A program made the translations under genes and the position numbers. Shown here piece after piece: positions 38,062-50,549 of a stretch of 64,000 bases of DNA (position 1 is its first letter; every line of letters starts with the position of its first letter). The notes under the pieces are model-generated. The model worked only from the letters and a program-made list of their open reading frames with translations, was not told where the DNA came from and searched no databases. The stretch is from Fibrobacteria bacterium. Its GTDB lineage: Bacteria; Fibrobacterota; Fibrobacteria; UBA11236. Where the stretch lies: assembly GCA_041746255.1 (NCBI GenBank), contig JBGTHM010000099.1, positions 29,970 to 93,969 of the forward strand. Direction: 5' to 3'.

Positions 38062-39132
38062 TTAATCTTTCCAAAGTAATTCGGTTTTCGTAATTCGCTC
38101 ACGCACCTGCTCCCGAAGCGACTTGGGAGCAACGGGAATGAGATCGGGCGCCAGCGACAAAATCCAGTTGATGAAATCGGGTTTGAGCAAAACCTTGAGT
38201 TCAAAGTAAGTCCGCCCCGCGCGCTTGACGATTTTTCCCGGCGGATTGAAATGGCTTTCGGATAAATACTTTTCCAGCCACCCTTCCCGCACCCACAGGC
38301 TGACGTTTTCCGGTTCTTCTCCCGGCTGCCGGGGCCATTGTCCAAAGCAATATTTATAGTATTCACGAATCTGAAAAGCGGGATCGCGCGTGAAAGTGGC
38401 GGGAGTCGCGATGCACCTTTTGATGCGCTTTATCACCAGACTTTTATCCGCGCCTTTATTGGCTTCGGCCCGGCCAATGAGATAGAGCGTGCCGACACGC
38501 AGGCAGATTTGATAGGGACAGAATTTGAACTCCGCTTCTTCATGCGTATATCCGGAGTAACGGATGTGCACGATATGCGTTTCCAGAACGGCCTTTTCCA
38601 AAATTTTCAAGATGCCGGGCGCCGGATCGGCTTCGGCGAAGGGTCCGTGATCGATATGATAGGCTTCGGTTTCCGGCGAGGGAGTGGCGTCGGCCGTCTC
38701 GTCGCGCCTTTCAAGCCATGCCACGAGTCCCGAAATCGCCTGGGAATATTTGGGGTTGCCGCCCGCGTAAAGCTCCGCCTTGATTTTTTCGAGCATGGGG
38801 ATGAACCGCTTCGGCATATCCTCTCGCGACTGGATGGAATAGAAGGACTTTTTGCTGGAGCCTTCCTGATGGTAGACCAGCCCGCAATTCCATTTACGTA
38901 ATTCGGATAGGTAGCGTTTGACGGTTCTCTCATCGACCCCGAGGCTTGAGGCCATTTGTTGCAAAGTTAGGCCATGCTCCGAGGCTTGCAGCAAATCGAG
39001 CAGACGATGGATTTTAAATGCTTTGTTGCCCGGGCCCGGCTTGGGCTTGGAATTCCGGCCCACCTCGAGTATGCGTCGGCTTAACGTGGGAAGGGGGGCC
39101 TCTGCGCTTTTTTGCTTTTTCAGGGATGCCAT
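38062..39132 (-). CDS. HTH + WYL (+WCX) transcriptional regulator
   Basis: N-terminal wHTH (LTLQQMASSLGVDERTVKRYLSEL), WYL-type core (IRYSG...CPYQI..RVGTLYLIG..IKRIK), and C-terminal WILSLAPDLIPVAPKSLRE. Confidence 0.82.
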   Translation of the reverse strand: MASLKKQKSAEAPLPTLSRRILEVGRNSKPKPGPGNKAFKIHRLLDLLQASEHGLTLQQMASSLGVDERTVKRYLSELRKWNCGLVYHQEGSSKKSFYSIQSREDMPKRFIPMLEKIKAELYAGGNPKYSQAISGLVAWLERRDETADATPSPETEAYHIDHGPFAEADPAPGILKILEKAVLETHIVHIRYSGYTHEEAEFKFCPYQICLRVGTLYLIGRAEANKGADKSLVIKRIKRCIATPATFTRDPAFQIREYYKYCFGQWPRQPGEEPENVSLWVREGWLEKYLSESHFNPPGKIVKRAGRTYFELKVLLKPDFINWILSLAPDLIPVAPKSLREQVRERITKTELLWKD

Positions 39133-42168: not shown

Positions 42169-43275
42169 ATGCGAAACGTTTATACCGAGTTGAATTCTGT
42201 TTCCCCAGTTTCCGCCTTATCGCTTTCACCGTCGGGTCCTACGGGACGATTATCCGGCTCACTTCTGAAATTAGTCCTTTTGGCTTCCGTGGTTGCGACC
42301 TTTGCGCAGCCCCAGGATCCCGTCAATCTACGGTCCACCGCCCAATTCGCCGTTTTGGCCGGCTCCCTGATTTCCAATATTCCAGGATCGGCCATAACCG
42401 GAGATATCGGGCTGAGCCCAGCCGGTGGCAGTATGATAACCGGGTTCGGCCCCAACGAAGTGACGGGGTCGATTTTCACTGTTGACGCAACGGGTCCGGC
42501 GGGATCGATTACCGCCGCCTCGGAATTAACCACCGCCCAAGGGGATTTGACCCTGGCCTATAACGATGCGGCTGGCCGGACACCGATTCCTTCCGGTCCC
42601 TTCCTCAACCCGGGATCGGGAAACATGGGTGGAATGACCCTGGAAGCCGGACTGTATAAATTCACCAGCGATGCCTCCATTGACGGCTCGGACCTTACCC
42701 TAACGGGCACGGCCACTGATGTTTGGATTTTCCAAATCGCCTCCGAACTCGTAGTCGGCAACGGAATCAAAATAATTCTCGCAGGCGGCGCCTTACCGGC
42801 CAATATCTTCTGGCAAGTCGGCACTTCGGCGACCTTGGGAACCACTTCGGTTTTCAAAGGGACCATCATGGCCGACCAATCGATTTCGATGAATACCGGC
42901 GCTACCCTGGATGGACGTGCCTTGGCCAGTATCGCCGCGGTCACTTTAGCCTCCAGTACGATTACCCGTCCGGGATTGACAAGCACGATTGTGAACCAAA
43001 AGCGAGCGGCGACCGACTTTTCGTTCCTCGTAAGCCAGGATAATCTCAACGGAGCGGCGACCCTTTCGTTTACGGCGCCCCATAAAGGTAAAGCCGTCTT
43101 GACCCTGAAAAATATGCGGGGGCAGGAAATCGCCAAGTTATTCGACGGCGATATCGAAGCGGGGAAAACCACCCAGGTCCTTTTCCGGACAGAGGGATTG
43201 TCCAAAGGAATTCATTTTTCCAGCCTTGCATTAAACGGTATTCCGCACATGACCCGTAAAATTCTGATTCATTAG
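42169..43275 (+). CDS. Ice-binding-family protein (DUF3494) with T9SS/FlgD-like C-terminal domain
   Basis: Motifs FAVLAGS.I.N, ITGDIGLSP, AYNDAAGR, GLYKF, VWIFQI, NIFWQV, FKGTI, GRALA..AVTL. C-terminal LKNMRGQEIAKLF...LSKGIHF...TRKILIH. Confidence 0.88.
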   Translation: MRNVYTELNSVSPVSALSLSPSGPTGRLSGSLLKLVLLASVVATFAQPQDPVNLRSTAQFAVLAGSLISNIPGSAITGDIGLSPAGGSMITGFGPNEVTGSIFTVDATGPAGSITAASELTTAQGDLTLAYNDAAGRTPIPSGPFLNPGSGNMGGMTLEAGLYKFTSDASIDGSDLTLTGTATDVWIFQIASELVVGNGIKIILAGGALPANIFWQVGTSATLGTTSVFKGTIMADQSISMNTGATLDGRALASIAAVTLASSTITRPGLTSTIVNQKRAATDFSFLVSQDNLNGAATLSFTAPHKGKAVLTLKNMRGQEIAKLFDGDIEAGKTTQVLFRTEGLSKGIHFSSLALNGIPHMTRKILIH

Positions 43276-43694: not shown

Positions 43695-43838
43695 ATGAAT
43701 GTTCAGATCGCGCTACAACCTCTATTGGCTTTGCTTGCGGGTATTTTAATCCTGATAATGCCCAGGCTACTCAATTATATCGTCGCGATTTATTTGATAG
43801 TGGTCGGCTTGGTGGGGCTTTTCGGGCTCCGCCTGTAA
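43695..43838 (+). CDS. DUF3096-family small membrane protein (47 aa)
   Basis: Translated by hand: MNVQIALQPLLALLAGILILIMPRLLNYIVAIYLIVVGLVGLFGLRL. Confidence 0.85.
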   Translation: MNVQIALQPLLALLAGILILIMPRLLNYIVAIYLIVVGLVGLFGLRL

Positions 43839-44803
43839 GTGCCCGTATCCGCTTCACTAAATTGAGACGGACCAAAGCGGGGAGGGTGATGCAAGAATTC
43901 CACCCTTTCCCTTCCGTCCTCCCATAATCCAACCGTAATCTCCGTCTGGGTGGCCTCTTTCAGCTTGTCAAAAGAGTTCCGCGCCATTTCGGATGCCAAT
44001 GACCGTGTTTCCGCTTTCCCGAATGGAAGTTTCGGGTCCGGGAAAATTCCCATGAATGCGCGGGTATCCATATAGGAGAGATGCAAGTCGCCTGGAGACG
44101 CCAGGATGTAATCGGTAAACGCGCCAAGCGCACCCAGGGTTACCGGGCTTCCCCCTTTGCAACTCGAAAGCGTGAGAAGGGCGAAGGGCTTTTCACTGCC
44201 GCTAGCGTCATTCCCGGTTAAAGCGAATTCTTGCAACCCCCGGGTAAATTCGGCCAAAGAGAAATTTCTGGAGGGGTAGGATGCGGAATAGCCTCGTCCA
44301 TCGCGTTCCGGGATTTCATGCCCGAAATAAAGCAAAATCCGGACAGGCGCTGAAGCAGAATAGGTTCGATAGAGGGCGACTTCCGAACCCAGGCTGGTTC
44401 CGTTTGCATAGCGAAGGTAAGTCTCCTCGCGGACTTTTTCTCCGAAACGAAAGTGGAAAAGAATTCCGTTTTTCACGGGAAAAAAGAACCGGGTACGCGC
44501 CGGTTTTTGGTGAAATATAAAGATCTCGGCATTCAAACCGGCGTGGGCGACTTCAATTGCCTGGGCAATGGCTTCTTGATCCGCGTAATGGCGGCGTCCT
44601 TGTGGGTCGTGATACGAATAGCTTGCATCTCCGTGAATCACATAAATCAATTGAAAGAGCGGTTGCTTACCTTCGTATGGTTGTCGGGCGGCAGGCTTAT
44701 CCTGCGAGTCACTACCTGGAGAATAGGCACAGCCCATCAGCAAAAAAAATGCCCCGGCGGTTGCCAGGGCATATACGATTCCGCTTTTGCCGAACAGCGT
44801 CAA
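43790..44803 (-). CDS. Lipoprotein, putative clan CD (clostripain/C11-like) cysteine peptidase
   Basis: Lipobox LMGC. ILLYFGH (His) and LLTLSSC (Cys) each follow a hydrophobic strand. TDYILASP resembles the C11 segment DYLVAS. Confidence 0.55.
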   Translation of the reverse strand: MTLFGKSGIVYALATAGAFFLLMGCAYSPGSDSQDKPAARQPYEGKQPLFQLIYVIHGDASYSYHDPQGRRHYADQEAIAQAIEVAHAGLNAEIFIFHQKPARTRFFFPVKNGILFHFRFGEKVREETYLRYANGTSLGSEVALYRTYSASAPVRILLYFGHEIPERDGRGYSASYPSRNFSLAEFTRGLQEFALTGNDASGSEKPFALLTLSSCKGGSPVTLGALGAFTDYILASPGDLHLSYMDTRAFMGIFPDPKLPFGKAETRSLASEMARNSFDKLKEATQTEITVGLWEDGRERVEFLHHPPRFGPSQFSEADTGTYRRSPKSPTKPTTIK

Positions 44804-44812
44804 GGAGCACTT

Positions 44813-45280
44813 TCAGAATATGATTATCAGCAACAGAATAATGATGATAAGCGCGCCGGTACTGATATAGAAGCCACCGCCGCTGAACCCCGCTTGTTCC
44901 ATGCTTTGCTGAACAGACCCCGCAAACGCGTCCAAATCACCGTCCACCACGGCATCATTACCTTCAGTGCCCTCGAGTATCGATAAGTGCTTTTGGAATT
45001 TTTCTTCGAGAGCCGCGAGGGTCTGTTTGTCCTGAGCATTAATCGAAGGCTTGGCTTGGATCTCCTTTAAGCCCGTTTCCATTTTAGTGAGGTAGTCGGA
45101 AAGGATGGTTCTTTTCGTTTCCGGGTTCTCGGCTTGCTGGACCTTCTGGACCATTTGGTTGAGAGAGGTTTTGAGTTTTTCCGCCAATAGGGTGGAATTG
45201 CTTTCCGCCCGAGTAGGGGACGCGAAGAGGGAGGCGGTTAGCAAAACTGCCATGGTACTGAGTCGATATAGCATATTCAT
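44813..45280 (-). CDS. Secreted helical protein with C-terminal SGGG + hydrophobic tail
   Basis: Signal peptide, helical body, ending in GFSGGGFYISTGALIIIILLLIIIF. Confidence 0.75.
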   Translation of the reverse strand: MNMLYRLSTMAVLLTASLFASPTRAESNSTLLAEKLKTSLNQMVQKVQQAENPETKRTILSDYLTKMETGLKEIQAKPSINAQDKQTLAALEEKFQKHLSILEGTEGNDAVVDGDLDAFAGSVQQSMEQAGFSGGGFYISTGALIIIILLLIIIF

Positions 45281-45474
45281 TCTCCTTGGTTCAGGAGTAA
45301 ATATAGGTAGCTAACGGATGGGTCGGAAGGGGAAAGCTTGGGGTAATCCCACCCCAATTTGAGTTTGGGAGTCGCAAACCGTAAAGGGCCCGAATCATTG
45401 CTCTCGCAAACGGCTGCAAGAAACCCAAATGTGCCCCCCGGCCGATACTTTCCGAAAATTTATTTAAACTGTAT

Positions 45475-45500
45475 GTAACATTGCTGAGTGGGGTTGCGAC
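45475..45500 (+). promoter_or_regulatory. ECF-sigma (ECF16/SigF-like) promoter of the MNIO operon
   Basis: GTAACA-N16-CGAC, 33 nt before the precursor ATG. Resembles the GTAACC-N16-CGAA consensus of Caulobacter SigF. Confidence 0.55.
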
Positions 45501-45533
45501 ACAGCATTGTCCACTAAACCGAGGAGTGATTAT

Positions 45534-45836
45534 ATGAACCACCACAACCTGATGAAACTTGCAATTGGAGGCTTATTGGCCGGGGGTATTGCGCTTACCG
45601 GCTGTAAAAAGAGTCCAACTTCCGGTAATCCGTCTGAAACCGACGCGGTTGCCGTCGCCAAGGCGGCATTGAAGGCGAAATGCGAAGCGAATGGCAAGGT
45701 ATACAAGGAAAACGACAGCTGTGCTGACTATAATGAATGCGCCGGCATTCAAATAAGCGGCAACACGGTGGTGGAACACGAATGCAAAGAGCACAATGAT
45801 TGCGCGGGCGCCTATTGCGCCGACCCCGCAGCGTAA
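45534..45836 (+). CDS. Cys-rich lipoprotein, putative MNIO RiPP precursor (bufferin-like)
   Basis: GAGGAG RBS. 100 aa with lipobox LTGC (C24). Cys at 50, 63, 69, 84, 90 and 95, with two C-x3-N-[ED]-C-A-G repeats. Lies directly upstream of DUF692. Confidence 0.8.
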   Translation: MNHHNLMKLAIGGLLAGGIALTGCKKSPTSGNPSETDAVAVAKAALKAKCEANGKVYKENDSCADYNECAGIQISGNTVVEHECKEHNDCAGAYCADPAA

Positions 45837-45841
45837 TTCCT

Positions 45842-46669
45842 TTGGAGCGAACTGCAATCGGGATGGGTCTTCGATTGCCGCATTACGGGCATATATTCGA
45901 GTATTGGCCCGATGTGGATTTTTTCGAGATTATCTCCGAAAACTTCTTGGGTGCAACCGGCCTTCCCTTGGCGCGGTTGCACCGGATTTTAGATCGCTAC
46001 CGGGTAGTGCTCCACGGCGTTTCCCTTAGTATCGCGTCCACCGACCCCCTCGACTACGATTACCTACGGCAATTGAAAAGCCTGGTCCGGTTGACGAAAG
46101 CACCCTATTTCACCGATCATCTTTGCTGGACTTCGGCGCAGGGAGCGCATTACCATGAATTGCTTCCCCTGCCCTTTACCGAAGAAAATGCCCGCTTCAT
46201 CGCTAAAAAAGCCGAAATCGTCCAGGATTATATCGATGCGCCTTTCGGTTTGGAAAATCTCTCCAGTTACGTTGCCTTTGCGGATTCCGAAATGAACGAA
46301 TGGGAATTTTTCAATACGGTCGTGCGACTTTCGGGCTGTCATTATATGTTGGATATCAACAACGTCTACGTTTCCTCGGTCAATCACGATTTCGCGCCCA
46401 CGCAATATATCGACTCCCTGGATTTTTCCCGGGTGTTACAATGCCATATTGCCGGCCACACCCGTAACGAGGATGGTACGATACTGGATACCCATGATCA
46501 GCCGATCATCGATCCGGTCTGGAAACTGTACGAATATGCGTGGGGACGTGGCGGCGGGTTTCCCACTTTACTGGAGCGGGACGGCAACATTCCGCCTTTC
46601 CCGGAAGCGCATGCGGAAGCCATGCAAGCCCGGGAATTCCAAATCAAGGCCGGCCATGCGGCAAGTTGA
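45842..46669 (+). CDS. MNIO-family (DUF692, BufB/MbnB-like) multinuclear non-heme iron oxidative enzyme
   Basis: Motifs GMGLRLPHY, FEIISENF, HGVSLSI, TDHLCW, LENLSSY, LDINNVYV, HIAGH, DTH, LLERD. Exact start uncertain (45800-45863). Confidence 0.93.
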   Translation: MERTAIGMGLRLPHYGHIFEYWPDVDFFEIISENFLGATGLPLARLHRILDRYRVVLHGVSLSIASTDPLDYDYLRQLKSLVRLTKAPYFTDHLCWTSAQGAHYHELLPLPFTEENARFIAKKAEIVQDYIDAPFGLENLSSYVAFADSEMNEWEFFNTVVRLSGCHYMLDINNVYVSSVNHDFAPTQYIDSLDFSRVLQCHIAGHTRNEDGTILDTHDQPIIDPVWKLYEYAWGRGGGFPTLLERDGNIPPFPEAHAEAMQAREFQIKAGHAAS

Positions 46670-47507
46670 TCCACCTCCGGCCCTGGTGGAGATGCAACGT
46701 CAATTCGGCGAGGTGTTGACCATGCCCTTTTGGTTCCAGGATGGAAAGGTGCGCCGGCAAATCGGCGCCTATCCCCCGGAATTGGTGCGACGGATGGTTC
46801 CCCGGGCGCAATTGACCGGGCGAAAAAGGTTGGCGGTTTATAACCGGCAATACTGGTATAGAATCCTCAATACCTTGCAAGGGGATTTTCCCTTGCTGAC
46901 AGCCCTGCTTACCGCTTACCGATTCAACCAATTGGCCACCGCTTATCTTGGTAAGTTTCCCTCTACGCATCCGTCCCTGCAGGAGTTGGCGCATGGATGG
47001 AACGACTTTTTATCCCGTGAATCGGAATGGGGTCAGTCGCTGTATCGGCAGGCAGCCGAGCTGGATACGATTTACCGGAAGGCTTTACGCGCGGAGGAGG
47101 TGGAAGCATTCAATCCCGCGTTGCTAAGTGAAAACGATTTGGAGAAGCTACCGCAGCAACCGTTGCGCTTTCAAGAGACTTTCGCCTTATTTACAGAGGA
47201 TTGGAACCTGGTGGAATGCCGCTTGTCGTTGGAAAGGACCGCTAAATCGGAGCAATCCATCACTCCCCGATACGGAAGGAGTCACTGGGCTTTTTACCGC
47301 GAGGCCTCTCGCCATCACTGGGTCAAGCTTACTCCCGTGCAGTTTTCTCTGTTATCCCTGCTCCATTCCGGTGAGACCTTGGAGGTCGCCTTATCCCGGA
47401 TTTCCGATAGAAGTTCCGAAGCGGAACTCGAAGAGTTACAGGGAAATATCGCCGCATGGTTTTCGCAATGGGTGGCTTGGAAGTGGTTCGCACCGAACCG
47501 AATTTAA
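46656..47507 (+). CDS. DUF2063-family MNIO partner protein (BufC/HvfC-like)
   Basis: RLAVYNRQYWYRILNTLQGDFPLLTALL...F..LA.AY...PS..PSL. The ATG at 46656 overlaps the end of DUF692. Confidence 0.88.
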   Translation: MRQVDPPPALVEMQRQFGEVLTMPFWFQDGKVRRQIGAYPPELVRRMVPRAQLTGRKRLAVYNRQYWYRILNTLQGDFPLLTALLTAYRFNQLATAYLGKFPSTHPSLQELAHGWNDFLSRESEWGQSLYRQAAELDTIYRKALRAEEVEAFNPALLSENDLEKLPQQPLRFQETFALFTEDWNLVECRLSLERTAKSEQSITPRYGRSHWAFYREASRHHWVKLTPVQFSLLSLLHSGETLEVALSRISDRSSEAELEELQGNIAAWFSQWVAWKWFAPNRI

Positions 47508-47529: not shown

Positions 47530-48354
47530 TCAAAATGCCTGCCCGAGGCTTACGGAGTAGAACAAAGCCCGCTCTCCGGGAACACGTTGCCATTCTTCTC
47601 TTTGCTCCAATCGTTTCAGGGAGTAAACCGAATGTCCTATCCTCATCCCTAAGGAAGTTTTGTGCGCGAGCTTCAGATCGCCTCCCACCGAGGGAGCAAG
47701 GGTCAGTTTGAATTCCCGGTCGCCTTCCCAATAAGTGGGTATCCAAATCCAATAGTCCGTCATCAGCATTAAGGAGGCGCCGAGTTTGAAGCGGGGGTGA
47801 GTCCGCCAATCGATACCGACATAGGAGAAGCTGTGCCAACTGCCTCTATCCGCCAAGGCGCTGTTCAGGGCGGTACTTGCCTGCATGTCCATGGAGATGC
47901 CGACCGTTTTAAGGTTCGTAAGCATAGGAAAGGCAAAATTCATTCCTATCAATCCATCGATATTGCCTGAGCCTACGAAGACTTCATTGACCCGATAGTT
48001 CTCGACGGACCAGTCGTAGCCGAGGGGAAAGTCCAATCCGGTGCGCAGTCTCAAGGCTCCCCACTTATATCCGAGGGAGAAGCGGCCTTTTCCGGGAGTA
48101 TAGCGACTGGCTTCGAATAACTTATCGTGGGTGTAATTGAGGGATAGGCCGAGGTGACCGGAAAGTTTCCATAAAGAAAAATAGGCGTCCACTGCGGGAA
48201 GGGTCGCGTAGGTTTGCCGGTTTTCGTAATTACCGGCTGGATAGGAGTCCCAATTTCCCGCGGATACGCTGGCATATCCCAATCGGAAGGGGTTATTCAT
48301 GGCGAGCGAAGCGGTGGCGAATAGCAGTAACGGCAATAGAGGATTAACAGCCAT
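47530..48354 (-). CDS. Putative outer-membrane beta-barrel protein
   Basis: Signal peptide, alternating aromatic strands, 'FPLG....GSGNID' motif, C-terminal Phe, and an AAGGAG RBS. Confidence 0.6.
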   Translation of the reverse strand: MAVNPLLPLLLFATASLAMNNPFRLGYASVSAGNWDSYPAGNYENRQTYATLPAVDAYFSLWKLSGHLGLSLNYTHDKLFEASRYTPGKGRFSLGYKWGALRLRTGLDFPLGYDWSVENYRVNEVFVGSGNIDGLIGMNFAFPMLTNLKTVGISMDMQASTALNSALADRGSWHSFSYVGIDWRTHPRFKLGASLMLMTDYWIWIPTYWEGDREFKLTLAPSVGGDLKLAHKTSLGMRIGHSVYSLKRLEQREEWQRVPGERALFYSVSLGQAF

Positions 48355-48503
48355 CGGCGCTCCTTAAATGGGTATCTGGACACTCTAAGTATAGTAGGGG
48401 AGATTATTGTTACCGGTTATTATGACTGGTATAGGTTCTGTGATGTATTTAGGCGAGGGTAACGGTGGTCATTTGGCCACTTATGTCGGAATTCCTTGCT
48501 TTT

Positions 48504-48522
48504 TATACGCGACACGCGTATA
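48504..48522. promoter_or_regulatory. Palindromic operator within the promoter of the XRE antitoxin
   Basis: TATACGCG-ACA-CGCGTATA is a perfect inverted repeat between TTGCTT (48496) and TATATCAT. Confidence 0.65.
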
Positions 48523-48523
48523 T

Positions 48524-48580
48524 CATCTGAGCGAACGCGAAAAAAATACACTTGCCAAATTTTTGAGGGGCATAAAATGA
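48524..48580 (+). pseudogene. Probable 3' remnant of a RelE/HigB2-type toxin gene
   Basis: The frame reads HLSEREKNTLAKFLRGIK*, and its stop overlaps the antitoxin ATG (ATGA). It resembles the C-terminal helix of HigB2-like toxins. Confidence 0.4.
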
Positions 48581-49080
48581 AAACCAAAACTAAATCCCAG
48601 GAGCGGAATCGCTTTGAGCACCTGGAAAAGGAACTGCTGGATCTCAAGGCGGGCAAAACTCGGATGAAGGTCACCACGGTTGATCCCTTTTCCAATGCCA
48701 TGACCGTGCACTACGAGACCTATGAGGAAATGCAGGCTCGACATAAGACCAAACCGAAGGCGGCCGCTGAGTTCAAGCAATTAAGGCAGTCGGTTGGATT
48801 AACCCAGAAAGCGGCGGCCGAAGCTTTGAGGGTAAGCCCGAGGACTTTACAGGGGTGGGAGTCTTCACGATGCCCTATCAATCCAACGGCAGAGACGTTC
48901 CTCAGGGTAATTCGAACACACCCGGAAATTCTGGATGAGCTGCTAGTGCGCCACACATCACAGCTTTTGGCGAAGGAGACGGGGCTGGAGAAAAAGGTGC
49001 GACGCACTGCGGAGCGGGTCGGCAGGAAATTGGCACGGACCCGAGCGTCGAAGGCTCGCGCGCCCCAGCGGTCGAAGTAG
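48577..49080 (+). CDS. XRE-family HTH protein (HigA2/YiaG-like antitoxin)
   Basis: FKQLRQSVGLTQKAAAEALRVSPRTLQGWE...P...AETFLRVIRTHPEIL. ATG at 48577 with a GAGGGG RBS. Confidence 0.8.
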   Translation: MKTKTKSQERNRFEHLEKELLDLKAGKTRMKVTTVDPFSNAMTVHYETYEEMQARHKTKPKAAAEFKQLRQSVGLTQKAAAEALRVSPRTLQGWESSRCPINPTAETFLRVIRTHPEILDELLVRHTSQLLAKETGLEKKVRRTAERVGRKLARTRASKARAPQRSK

Positions 49081-49310: not shown

Positions 49311-50549
49311 ATGTACTTCCCCCGGTTAATAGAACCGATTTTTCGCGCCTATCTGCAGGACTTTCCGGCCATTTTTTTAATGGGGCCGCGTCAAGTTGGG
49401 AAGTCCACTTTCCTGGCCCGGGAAATGACCGAATTCCGGATTTTTGACCTGGAATCACCTTCACTTTTCCAAGCCATTCAAGATGACCCGGAGCTTTTCC
49501 TTAAGGACCACCCTCAAGCAATTGTCTTGGATGAAGCGCAGAGGTGGCCCGCTCTTTTCGATGCATTACGGATCTCACTGGACAGGGATCCCCGTCCAGG
49601 CCGGTATATTCTGACAGGATCGGCATCGCCCCTTCTCAACCAAAGAGTATCCGAATCCTTAGCTGGCCGCATTGGACTGCTAACCTTACGTCAAATCAGT
49701 CTGAGGGAATATCTCGGAGCGGAAAAGAGCGATTGGCTGGAAGTCTTGAATTCGATGAAAACGGCGGACCAGATCTTTAAATGGTTCGGTGCGCATCCGA
49801 AACACGCACCCAGGGACGCCATGAATCGACATTGGTTCCGGGGTGGCTATCCCGATATATTGCTGGCGGAAAGCGATTCGGGGGCCTGGCGAAGGCAGGA
49901 CAGTTTTTTCAGATTTGTGGTGGAAAAAGATATTCCCATGCATGCGTCCGTACCGCCTGCGCGGCTAAACCTATTATTCAAGTTGTTAGCCCACCGACAT
50001 GGACAGCTTTTCAATGCATCAGAATTGGGGAGAGAGCTCAGCCTCAATTACAATACCGCGCAAGCCTCGGTTGATCTTCTGGAAGGCACCTTCCATCTCT
50101 ACCGTTTGCGTCCTTTTTTTAACAACCAAAGCAAAAGGTTAGTGAAATCGCCCAAGGTATATCTTACCGATAGCGGATTACTTCACTATTTGCTCGGCTT
50201 TCGAAATCATGAGGATTTGCTACTCTCCCCTTATGTCGGGGCCAGTTGGGAAGGCTGGGTCCTGCAAAACCTGATGGCTGATCTCGATCTTCTGGAACCC
50301 CGACCGGAATTGTACTTCTGGAGAACATCAGCCGGTGCGGAAGTGGATCTGGTTATTCGGCATCGAGGCCTTTTGATTCCGATAGAGATAAAACGGAAAG
50401 GCACATTGGGATACAGGGATGTGAAAGGCTTGGCGCATTTTATAGAAGACCACGGGTCACCATTCGGCTTGGTATTGCACGGAGGTGAGCAATTACTTCG
50501 CGTCTCGGAAAAAATCCTGGCAGTGCCCGCTACCTGGGTCTTGATTTGA
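49311..50549 (+). CDS. AAA_14 ATPase with DUF4143 C-terminal domain
   Basis: Motifs GPRQVGKST, LDEAQ, LTGSA, ESLAGR, GGYP, KSPKVYLTDSGLL, YFWRT..GAEVDLV, IEIK. Confidence 0.9.
   Translation: MYFPRLIEPIFRAYLQDFPAIFLMGPRQVGKSTFLAREMTEFRIFDLESPSLFQAIQDDPELFLKDHPQAIVLDEAQRWPALFDALRISLDRDPRPGRYILTGSASPLLNQRVSESLAGRIGLLTLRQISLREYLGAEKSDWLEVLNSMKTADQIFKWFGAHPKHAPRDAMNRHWFRGGYPDILLAESDSGAWRRQDSFFRFVVEKDIPMHASVPPARLNLLFKLLAHRHGQLFNASELGRELSLNYNTAQASVDLLEGTFHLYRLRPFFNNQSKRLVKSPKVYLTDSGLLHYLLGFRNHEDLLLSPYVGASWEGWVLQNLMADLDLLEPRPELYFWRTSAGAEVDLVIRHRGLLIPIEIKRKGTLGYRDVKGLAHFIEDHGSPFGLVLHGGEQLLRVSEKILAVPATWVLI

Follow-up and report, generated by a model that had tools for sequence, protein, structure and literature searches.

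A three-gene operon in a 64,000-nt stretch of DNA from a Fibrobacterota bacterium (contig JBGTHM010000099.1, positions 29,970 to 93,969; hereafter the window) encodes a 100-residue cysteine-rich precursor, a DUF692 enzyme of the multinuclear nonheme iron-dependent oxidase (MNIO) type, and a DUF2063 partner protein (Table 1). This operon is likely to be a bufferin-like system for a peptide made by the ribosome and modified after translation (RiPP), in which the MNIO and its partner would convert four cysteines to thiooxazoles, Sec, Lgt, and LspA would export and anchor the product, and the product would sequester copper in the cell envelope. The genes, their order, the lipobox of the precursor, the intact MNIO, the family to which the precursor belongs, and the link of this family to one MNIO branch were read directly from the sequence; we infer the modification chemistry, the lipidation, and the copper binding of the precursor. 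The system appears to work like bufferin 2 and to be a predicted DAG-RiPP, yet the precursor is not a BufA2 by either profile scores or cysteine spacing; its anchor and its missing DoxX and sigma genes are already known traits, and the unusual part is the core, whose family is unnamed, occurs widely, and arranges its elements in a different order.

A Six-Cysteine Domain Family

All three genes were confirmed as intact, and they follow the order of bufABC (precursor, MNIO, DUF2063). As a sequence-only reading of the window had described, the precursor gene encodes an LTG-C24 lipobox and six further cysteines (residues 50, 63, 69, 84, 90, and 95), including the segments SCADYNECAG and ECKEHNDCAG. 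Two copies of the CxxxN[ED]CAG repeat proposed in that reading are thus present, and they are the only two occurrences in six frames of the host genome (4.59 Mb, 100% complete), in which a doubled CxxxNxCxG occurs once; however, the repeat in that form is peculiar to this copy, the motif of the family being HxC-x-G-x-N-x-C-x-G. The domain of the family follows the pattern F-x3-Ca-x3-GG...Cb-x5-Cc-x-G...H-x-Cd-x5-Ce-x-G-x2-Cf.

Relatives of the precursor were gathered by a HMMER scan of 1.84 billion representatives, profile searches, genome loci, and metagenome loci. From the 32 hits of the HMMER scan, long sequences were excluded as unrelated, as was the Cys/Thr-rich repeat protein P0025; in a single-sequence word search, the precursor matched itself alone (1 of 8 candidates). 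Precursors varied too much in the alignment to yield a pattern for scanning metagenomes, so that metagenome loci were fetched with MNIO patterns. Among all sequences fetched, which come from Fibrobacterota, Myxococcota, and metagenomes, 133 proteins contain a total of 146 distinct domains; one domain was found in 123 proteins, two in eight, three in one, and four in one. These counts, and those given below for genome loci, linked MNIOs, lipoboxes, heme-c motifs, and gene arrangements, include loci L047, L063, and L074 of genome G021, on which no conclusion hangs. A scan of the phylum gave hits in 30 of 296 genomes, with a true domain in 22; the other eight were discarded, six having matched via the signal peptide only and two via another precursor type. 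One two-domain precursor (L086) is apparently split into two open reading frames (ORFs) by one in-frame TAG; the ORF of its relative L061 is unbroken. In the ESM Atlas, the nearest clusters are unnamed and mostly from Myxococcota (0.84–0.88); a cluster with 13% BufA1 is also listed (score 0.79–0.80), which represents a lead only, and the structure search there rested on a model with a predicted local distance difference test (pLDDT) score of 0.40 and was uninformative.

The precursor scored 12.5 bits against NF050166 (BufA2; cut-off 60). Among 24 family proteins, those with one to three domains reached at most 24.7 bits and the one with four domains 53.8 bits, so that none attained the cut-off, while all seven true Buf2 controls from the same locus set passed it at 77–133 bits. 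Pfam gave no hit in the 24 family proteins, PF10048 (BufA1/DUF2282) included, and no meaningful hit for the precursor, which also lacks the EGKCG repeat. The suggestion of an undescribed subfamily is supported: the precursor falls outside the BufA1, BufA2, and oxazolin models, so that the family is probably an uncatalogued subfamily, although this kind of system, with its anchor, is already known. We found no description of the six-Cys family in the open-access literature, a scope outside which subscription papers and supplements fall.

It is unlikely that the family has already been catalogued, be it among the lipoprotein Buf2, the ‘CxxxxC’, or the Cys-rich ORFs left unclustered in PMC12452194, or among DAG-RiPP clusters II–IV/X of PMC13056109; such an overlap would reduce the novelty and leave the proposed mechanism as it is. 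The six conserved cysteines are shared with Buf2, and BufA2 was the best NCBIfam precursor match throughout, always below the cut-off; Cys90-x4-Cys95 represents a CxxxxC, as conserved in the lipoproteins of DAG-RiPP cluster X; Myxococcota are named four times in the same paper (PMC13056109); and hundreds of further Cys-containing ORFs have been reported to precede MNIO genes (PMC12452194). The separation of the 24 family proteins from the Buf2 controls argues against prior cataloguing, as does the finding that the neighbours of CxxxxC clusters, DoxX and Lactamase_B_2, were not seen among 108 of 146 neighbouring ORFs in 32 family loci (many short ORFs were left out of this set); both were also unlinked to the cluster in the genomes checked. 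A further point against it is that a family member (L024) lies beside the MNIO of strain So ce56, presumably the Sorangium cellulosum strain of assembly GCF_000067165.1. The genome table of PMC12452194 gives this assembly 0 Buf1, 0 Buf2, 0 EGKCG, and five MNIOs, and the same paper describes a Lactamase_B_2 gene in 54% of CxxxxC clusters and DoxX as their core gene.

Linkage to One MNIO Branch

The domain and the MNIO were found together in both directions of search. Starting from the precursor, 22 loci contained the domain, and an MNIO was located within 1.5 kb in 19 of them; starting from the MNIO, 80 metagenome loci were retrieved with MNIO patterns, of which 54 contained the domain, and many of the 26 loci without it are short contigs. 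The 60 precursors in these 54 loci include 15 upstream of the MNIO, 15 downstream, 25 tail-to-tail, and five head-to-head. A single branch of the tree (FastTree support 99, 108 rows; support 98 in a smaller quick IQ-TREE run) placed all 83 distinct family-linked MNIOs on the same side, together with 25 other rows and none of the 11 Buf2-linked or two Buf1-linked MNIOs. As sampled, this tree shows cohesion of the MNIOs, not exclusivity. Gene order varies in Fibrobacterota, with the precursor placed after the partner in L008, L055, and L057 and two tandem precursors in L006.

The MNIO of the cluster is the sole MNIO found in the host genome. A second MNIO branch (L038–L054 and L059; 17 rows, support 98–99) is present in related genomes and absent from that of the host. 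In the ten loci of this branch that were examined, the MNIO is arranged tail-to-tail with non-lipoprotein precursors bearing two HxCKGxNxCKGxGGC units, and the 1.5 kb around it showed no partner resembling P0003; one precursor of this type that was tested scored 17 bits on BufA2.

The MNIO of the window matched PF05114 at 320.8 bits (cut-off 25). Its best score among five MNIO models was with NF050167 (BufB; 305.3 bits, cut-off 310), followed by HvfB (259 bits, cut-off 360), and it was distant from ApyH (68 bits), ChrH (45.6 bits), and MbnB (42.4 bits). Ten His, Asp, Glu, and Asn residues (H72, D106, H107, E152, D185, N188, H216, D230, H232, and E259 in P0002 numbering) did not vary among the 12 aligned MNIOs, in agreement with the earlier description of an enzyme with intact ligands; these residues presumably include the iron ligands known from work on MbnB and TglH. 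Translation most likely starts at TTG 45842, since a start at ATG 45863 would leave out the invariant G21, which is encoded upstream of it. The closest solved relative is 3bww (E 9e-48), and the closest MNIOs, 53–66% identical, come mostly from metagenome-assembled genomes of Fibrobacterota and next from Sorangium. The partner gene, as previously noted, overlaps the MNIO gene, its ATG at 46656 giving a 14-nt overlap with the MNIO stop. The partner matched PF09836 (DUF2063) at 51.2 bits (cut-off 27.2) and, below the cut-offs, PF22106 (NGO1945_C) with its C-terminus (19.1 bits, cut-off 27) and NF050145 (HvfC; 37.4 bits, cut-off 142). With this sub-cut-off C-terminal match, it shares the layout of the partners in bufferin-type systems, an N-terminal DUF2063 followed by an RRE-like domain.

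Predicted Assignment of the Cysteines

Cysteine losses across the 146 domains presented a distinct pattern: all six cysteines were retained in 127 domains, the third alone was missing in 17, and the first and last were missing together in two. Glycine occupied the +2 position of the four central cysteines in 87, 100, 77, and 97% of the domains, respectively, and was not found there for the outer two. Because of these loss patterns and the glycine at +2, we infer that Cys50 and Cys95 form a disulfide and that Cys63, Cys69, Cys84, and Cys90 are the targets of the MNIO; four targets and one disulfide predict a shift of −18 Da from the monoisotopic mass of 7961.57 Da calculated for unmodified residues 24–100. 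In Buf2, a shift of −18 Da has been reported, with the outer cysteines unmodified and the central cysteines at −4.03 Da each (10.1101/2024.03.18.585515), and this logic of an outer disulfide and four modified central cysteines was counted in favour of the same assignment here. The 17 domains without the third cysteine have Ala or Gly in its place and form a five-Cys subfamily (L158, L162–L165, L167–L171, L175, L176, L178, L180, L182, and L185) predicted to carry three modifications. The core is acidic, as had been proposed, with a net charge of −6 for the domain versus 0 to +7 in ten of 11 Buf2 controls (−4 in the eleventh).

Fold and Relation to the Bufferin 2 Core

An AlphaFold2 model of the domain (pLDDT 72; model residue 1 corresponds to protein residue 34) presented a helix at residues 4–19 followed by strands at 23–27, 38–42, 45–49, and 59–63. 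Precursor residues 37–52, part of the ‘linker’ in the sequence-only reading, are thus a predicted helix belonging to the domain; a linker remains, but it is shorter. The BufA2 fold has the order strand-loop-strand-helix-strand; in a Buf2 control model (AlphaFold2, pLDDT 53), the helix lies near the end, whereas in the six-Cys domain the helix comes first. Alignment of the family core with Buf2 by hhalign gave probabilities of 88.7–93% (P 3e-6 to 3e-7), the best alignment covering the Cys63–Cys90 region against the Buf2 core (93%, P 3e-7); a second, out-of-order segment paired Cys50-x3-G with the Cys-x3-GG at the C-terminus of Buf2 (P 0.025, or 0.0023 alone). Because the helix-CxxxGG that ends bufferins starts the six-Cys domain, the two layouts may be related by circular permutation, a suggestion from sequence and models for which we see about equal chances of being right and wrong. 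The cysteine spacing is 12-5-14-5-4 in the precursor versus C-x5-C-x5-C-x6-C-x5-C-x12/13-C in Buf2. Sequence searches for solved relatives gave no hits for the family profile and 12 weak, unrelated hits for Buf2, and fold searches were without a clear match (best E of 1.2 with Foldseek against PDB, best Z of 3.5 with VIA-align, and best E of 0.32 in a viral library); this lack of a fold match does not show a new fold.

Predicted Lipid Anchor of the Precursor

The lipid anchor of the precursor, as judged from its sequence and relatives, is well supported: the strict LTG-C24 lipobox is present, Cys24 was invariant in 15 of 15 aligned relatives, and the host genome encodes both Lgt and LspA, which bears out the earlier prediction of a lipoprotein. 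A lipobox-like cysteine after a hydrophobic stretch was found in 120 of 133 family proteins, 43 of them with the strict consensus (a motif-based call); several of the 13 proteins without such a cysteine are truncated. By motif, the precursor also fits the DAG-RiPP trait of a lipobox signal on an MNIO-associated precursor of 50–160 aa. Three matches to LspA (signal peptidase II) were located in the host genome, on contigs C5, C18, and C53. As a novelty, however, the anchor did not hold: about 16% of Buf2 bufferins were already predicted to carry lipoprotein signals (PMC12452194), and lipidated MNIO RiPPs have been defined as the class of DAG-RiPPs, with lipidated bufferins, lipidated oxazolins, and a CxxxxC cluster found by mining and with triacylation and a −12 Da modification demonstrated for NedA (PMC13056109).

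A leader motif, LxxLA[IL]xG[LI]xAG (window positions 45546–45590), is conserved in precursors with and without a lipoprotein signal and also in the second type of precursor; such conservation would be expected of a signal peptide that also serves the partner as its recognition site.

Upstream Motif and Possible Regulation

A promoter-like motif of the extracytoplasmic function (ECF) sigma factor type precedes the precursor gene. A first pattern, GTAAC-N17-CGA, was found in only one of 21 regions, that of the window itself, and was replaced by a relaxed form. This form, TG[AT]AAC-N16/17-N[GT]AC, was present at −60 to −93 in nine of 18 upstream regions of family precursors, including the one described here (0.1 expected from shuffles), compared with 14 matches among 898 tiles drawn from these loci; it was fitted post hoc, after the sequences had been seen, and kin are not independent. 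The motif resembles the SigF promoter of Caulobacter, GTAACC-N16-CGAA. The host genome contains 20 sigma-70 family matches, a scan for sigma-70 promoters and terminators remained at chance level, and in one relative (L003) a sigma-70 r2/r4_2 gene lies directly upstream of the precursor gene. ECF control of the operon in trans would be a reasonable reading of these sequences.

Outside long ORFs, 24 sites with the motif were found in the host genome, many of them probably due to chance. Other genes with the motif in front of them encode a pair of DUF3047 paralogues, a methyltransferase, presumably ArsM-like, and an FAD/4Fe-4S protein (C51:2815, C115:122287, C121:4531, and C34:12266); it is possible that the genes preceded by the motif share a stress regulon. 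Genes encoding DUF547 (L003) or DUF2064 (L107) proteins are located near the cluster in relatives.

Proposed Pathway and Alternatives

In the pathway that we propose, metal or redox stress would lead an ECF sigma factor encoded elsewhere to transcribe the operon. The DUF2063 partner would hold the precursor in the cytoplasm while the MNIO oxidises Cys63, Cys69, Cys84, and Cys90 to 5-thiooxazoles (−4 Da each); Sec would then export the precursor, and Lgt and LspA would lipidate Cys24 and remove the signal. Formation of the Cys50–Cys95 disulfide would bring the total for the core to −18 Da, as in Buf2, and the tethered domain would sequester copper in the envelope.

Several observations weigh against parts of this interpretation. 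Three of the 22 precursor loci (L068, L079, and L081) had no MNIO within 1.5 kb, and the MNIO samples were drawn with clade-derived patterns, which means that the tree is not an unbiased survey. The MNIO scored 4.7 bits below the BufB cut-off and carries Glu120 where at least 90% of its aligned relatives have Asp. The joint loss of the first and last cysteines (L062 and L089) concerns near-identical, non-lipoprotein sequences and represents a single event; the precursor carries Asp65 and Glu86, not Gly, at +2 of Cys63 and Cys84, which could hinder modification; and the best hhalign register matches Cys63/69 with Buf2 Cys I/II, which would instead make Cys63 the disulfide partner. Finally, the alignment of the swapped helix segment is weak, and the Buf2 control model reached a pLDDT of 53.

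Some of these observations would fit a precursor that remains a partly modified or unmodified lipoprotein with three disulfides, or an MNIO that installs another chemistry (oxazolone-thioamide or macrocycle), which we regard as the least probable of the alternatives. Six cysteines can give three disulfides, the unmodified domain was folded by AlphaFold2 as described above, and the acidic +2 residues, Glu120, and MNIO scores below every NCBIfam cut-off point in the same direction; however, the loss of a single cysteine in 17 domains is hard to reconcile with three disulfides, and the tight link to one MNIO branch extends across two phyla. Another chemistry is also disfavoured by the scores of the MNIO, which is far from ChrH, MbnB, and ApyH and close to BufB.

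Myxobacterial members (L009–L024, L113, L129, L162, L168, P0027, P0029, and P0049–P0068) fuse the six-Cys domain to cytochrome c, often together with a MopE-related motif and EF-hands, and three of these cytochrome fusions (L113, L129, and L162) neighbour DUF3570 genes. A modified domain that serves as a redox or electron-transfer site paired with cytochrome c, or in another stress role (oxidant or metalloid), and not mainly as a copper sponge, seems improbable. It would be in line with these fusions, to which the Sorangium members add the MopE-related motif and EF-hands, with the neighbouring DUF3570 genes, and with the downstream CxxCH (heme-c motif) found in 41 of 133 family proteins, some of which have Pfam cytochrome c hits; the DUF3047 pair, the methyltransferase, and the FAD/4Fe-4S protein preceded by the promoter-like motif are likewise not evident copper exporters. 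Yet the precursor described here has no cytochrome domain, the list of 24 motif sites probably holds many chance sites, Buf1–cytochrome c fusions have already been reported and read as copper-related (PMC12452194), and the characterised BufB-type products considered here bind copper, Cu(II) in the case of Buf1 (10.1101/2024.03.18.585515). A broader and similarly improbable reading combines these features: the family would represent a third, circularly permuted bufferin-type domain that can be moved between proteins as a module and is served by an MNIO branch of its own. In Fibrobacterota, a lipid anchor would carry one copy or two to four in tandem; in myxobacteria, the domain would be part of MopE-like, EF-hand, and cytochrome c fusions, where the enzyme-made thiooxazole metal site would be a protein-derived, heme-wired redox cofactor and not a passive copper sponge.

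Comparison with Known Systems

The bufferin-like operon proposed here shares with bufferin 2 (Caulobacter vibrioides BufA2-BufB2-BufC2; BUF_6/12Cys; NF050166/NF050167) the order precursor-MNIO-DUF2063, six conserved cysteines, CxGxNxCxG-type units, an export signal, a cluster without DoxX or sigma genes, and, as predicted for the six-Cys domain, an outer disulfide with four modified cysteines. It differs in that the helix-CxxxGG is N-terminal in the six-Cys domain and C-terminal in Buf2, in the hairpin between the two Cys pairs, in its acidity, in its failure to match NF050166, in the share of lipoproteins (about 90% of the six-Cys family versus 16% of Buf2), and in its separate MNIO branch. 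The absence of DoxX and sigma genes noted earlier was confirmed among the neighbouring ORFs scanned but is not a distinguishing trait, since Buf2 is alike: Caulobacter buf2 is described without DoxX (10.1101/2024.03.18.585515), and PMC12452194 reports sigma/anti-sigma genes in Buf1 but not in Buf2 clusters. Two DoxX matches in the host genome both lie on contigs other than that of the cluster.

Like the DAG-RiPPs (DybA, NedA, and the predicted lipidated bufferins and cluster X of PMC13056109), the operon combines a lipobox precursor with an MNIO and a partner, with predicted modification in the cytoplasm followed by Lgt/LspA maturation; in contrast, the precursor core is neither CPACGMG (DybA) nor EGKCG (NedA), and the mined clusters were compared by description only. 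With the ‘CxxxxC’ family (PMC12452194) and DAG-RiPP cluster X, also compared by description, the precursor shares one CxxxxC (Cys90–Cys95). The oxazolins (HvfA/Buf_EGKCG) likewise have an MNIO with a DUF2063 partner, and some members are lipidated; unlike them, the precursor has no EGKCG repeat, and its MNIO falls short of the HvfB cut-off (259 versus 360). The N-x-C and H-x-C-x-G motifs and the Cys-x-x-x-GG element resemble bufferin 1 (DUF2282/BufA1, PF10048); bufferin 1 differs in having four cysteines and not six, and there is no PF10048 match in the precursor, no DoxX in the cluster, and no NrsF anti-sigma factor found in the host genome.

Genomic Context

The coordinates of the cluster and of neighbouring genes are given in Table 1. 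Flanking ORFs at 43790–45280 (−) and 47530–48354 (−), of 337, 155, and 274 aa, encode apparently exported proteins; they matched no Pfam or NCBIfam family above the cut-off, and no tie to the cluster was found.

Table 1. Features of the operon and its surroundings (window coordinates)
Feature	Position	Strand	Details
Secreted ice-binding-like protein	42169–43275	+	PF11999, 197.5 bits
HTH-WYL-WCX regulator	38062–39132	−	
ECF-sigma-type promoter-like motif	45474–45500	+	TGTAAC-N17-CGAC; 60 nt before the precursor ATG
Ribosome-binding site of precursor	45521–45526	+	GAGGAG; 7 nt before the ATG
Precursor lipoprotein, 100 aa (predicted)	45534–45836	+	signal peptide 1–23, lipobox Cys24, short linker, six-Cys domain
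Type II signal peptide	45534–45605	+	strict lipobox LTG-C24; hydrophobic core (Kyte-Doolittle mean over 11 residues reaching 2.04)
Six-Cys domain	45642–45833	+	helix-Cys50-x3-G, strand, Cys63-x5-Cys69, hairpin, H-x-Cys84-x5-Cys90-x4-Cys95
MNIO (DUF692), BufB-like maturase	45842–46669	+	likely TTG start 45842; longest ORF from 45800
DUF2063 partner, BufC/HvfC-like	46656–47507	+	PF09836; NGO1945_C-like C-terminal domain (PF22106)
Xre-type HTH protein, antitoxin-like	48496–49080	+	
AAA_14/DUF4143 ATPase	49311–50549	+	

Implications

While the lipid anchor adds little by itself, the six-Cys family explains ‘orphan’ MNIO genes of myxobacteria and Fibrobacterota that are missed by the BufA1, BufA2, and EGKCG profiles, and it is ready for a profile of its own with testable assignments, namely four modified cysteines, one disulfide, and a shift of −18 Da. 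If the rearrangement is true, BufB-type enzymes would respond to CxGxNxCxG units locally, perhaps along with the conserved leader, and not to the bufferin fold as a whole, which would bear on how precursors are recognised by BufBC, a question still open. The cytochrome c fusions in cultured Sorangium make roles of thiooxazoles beyond copper sequestration directly testable.

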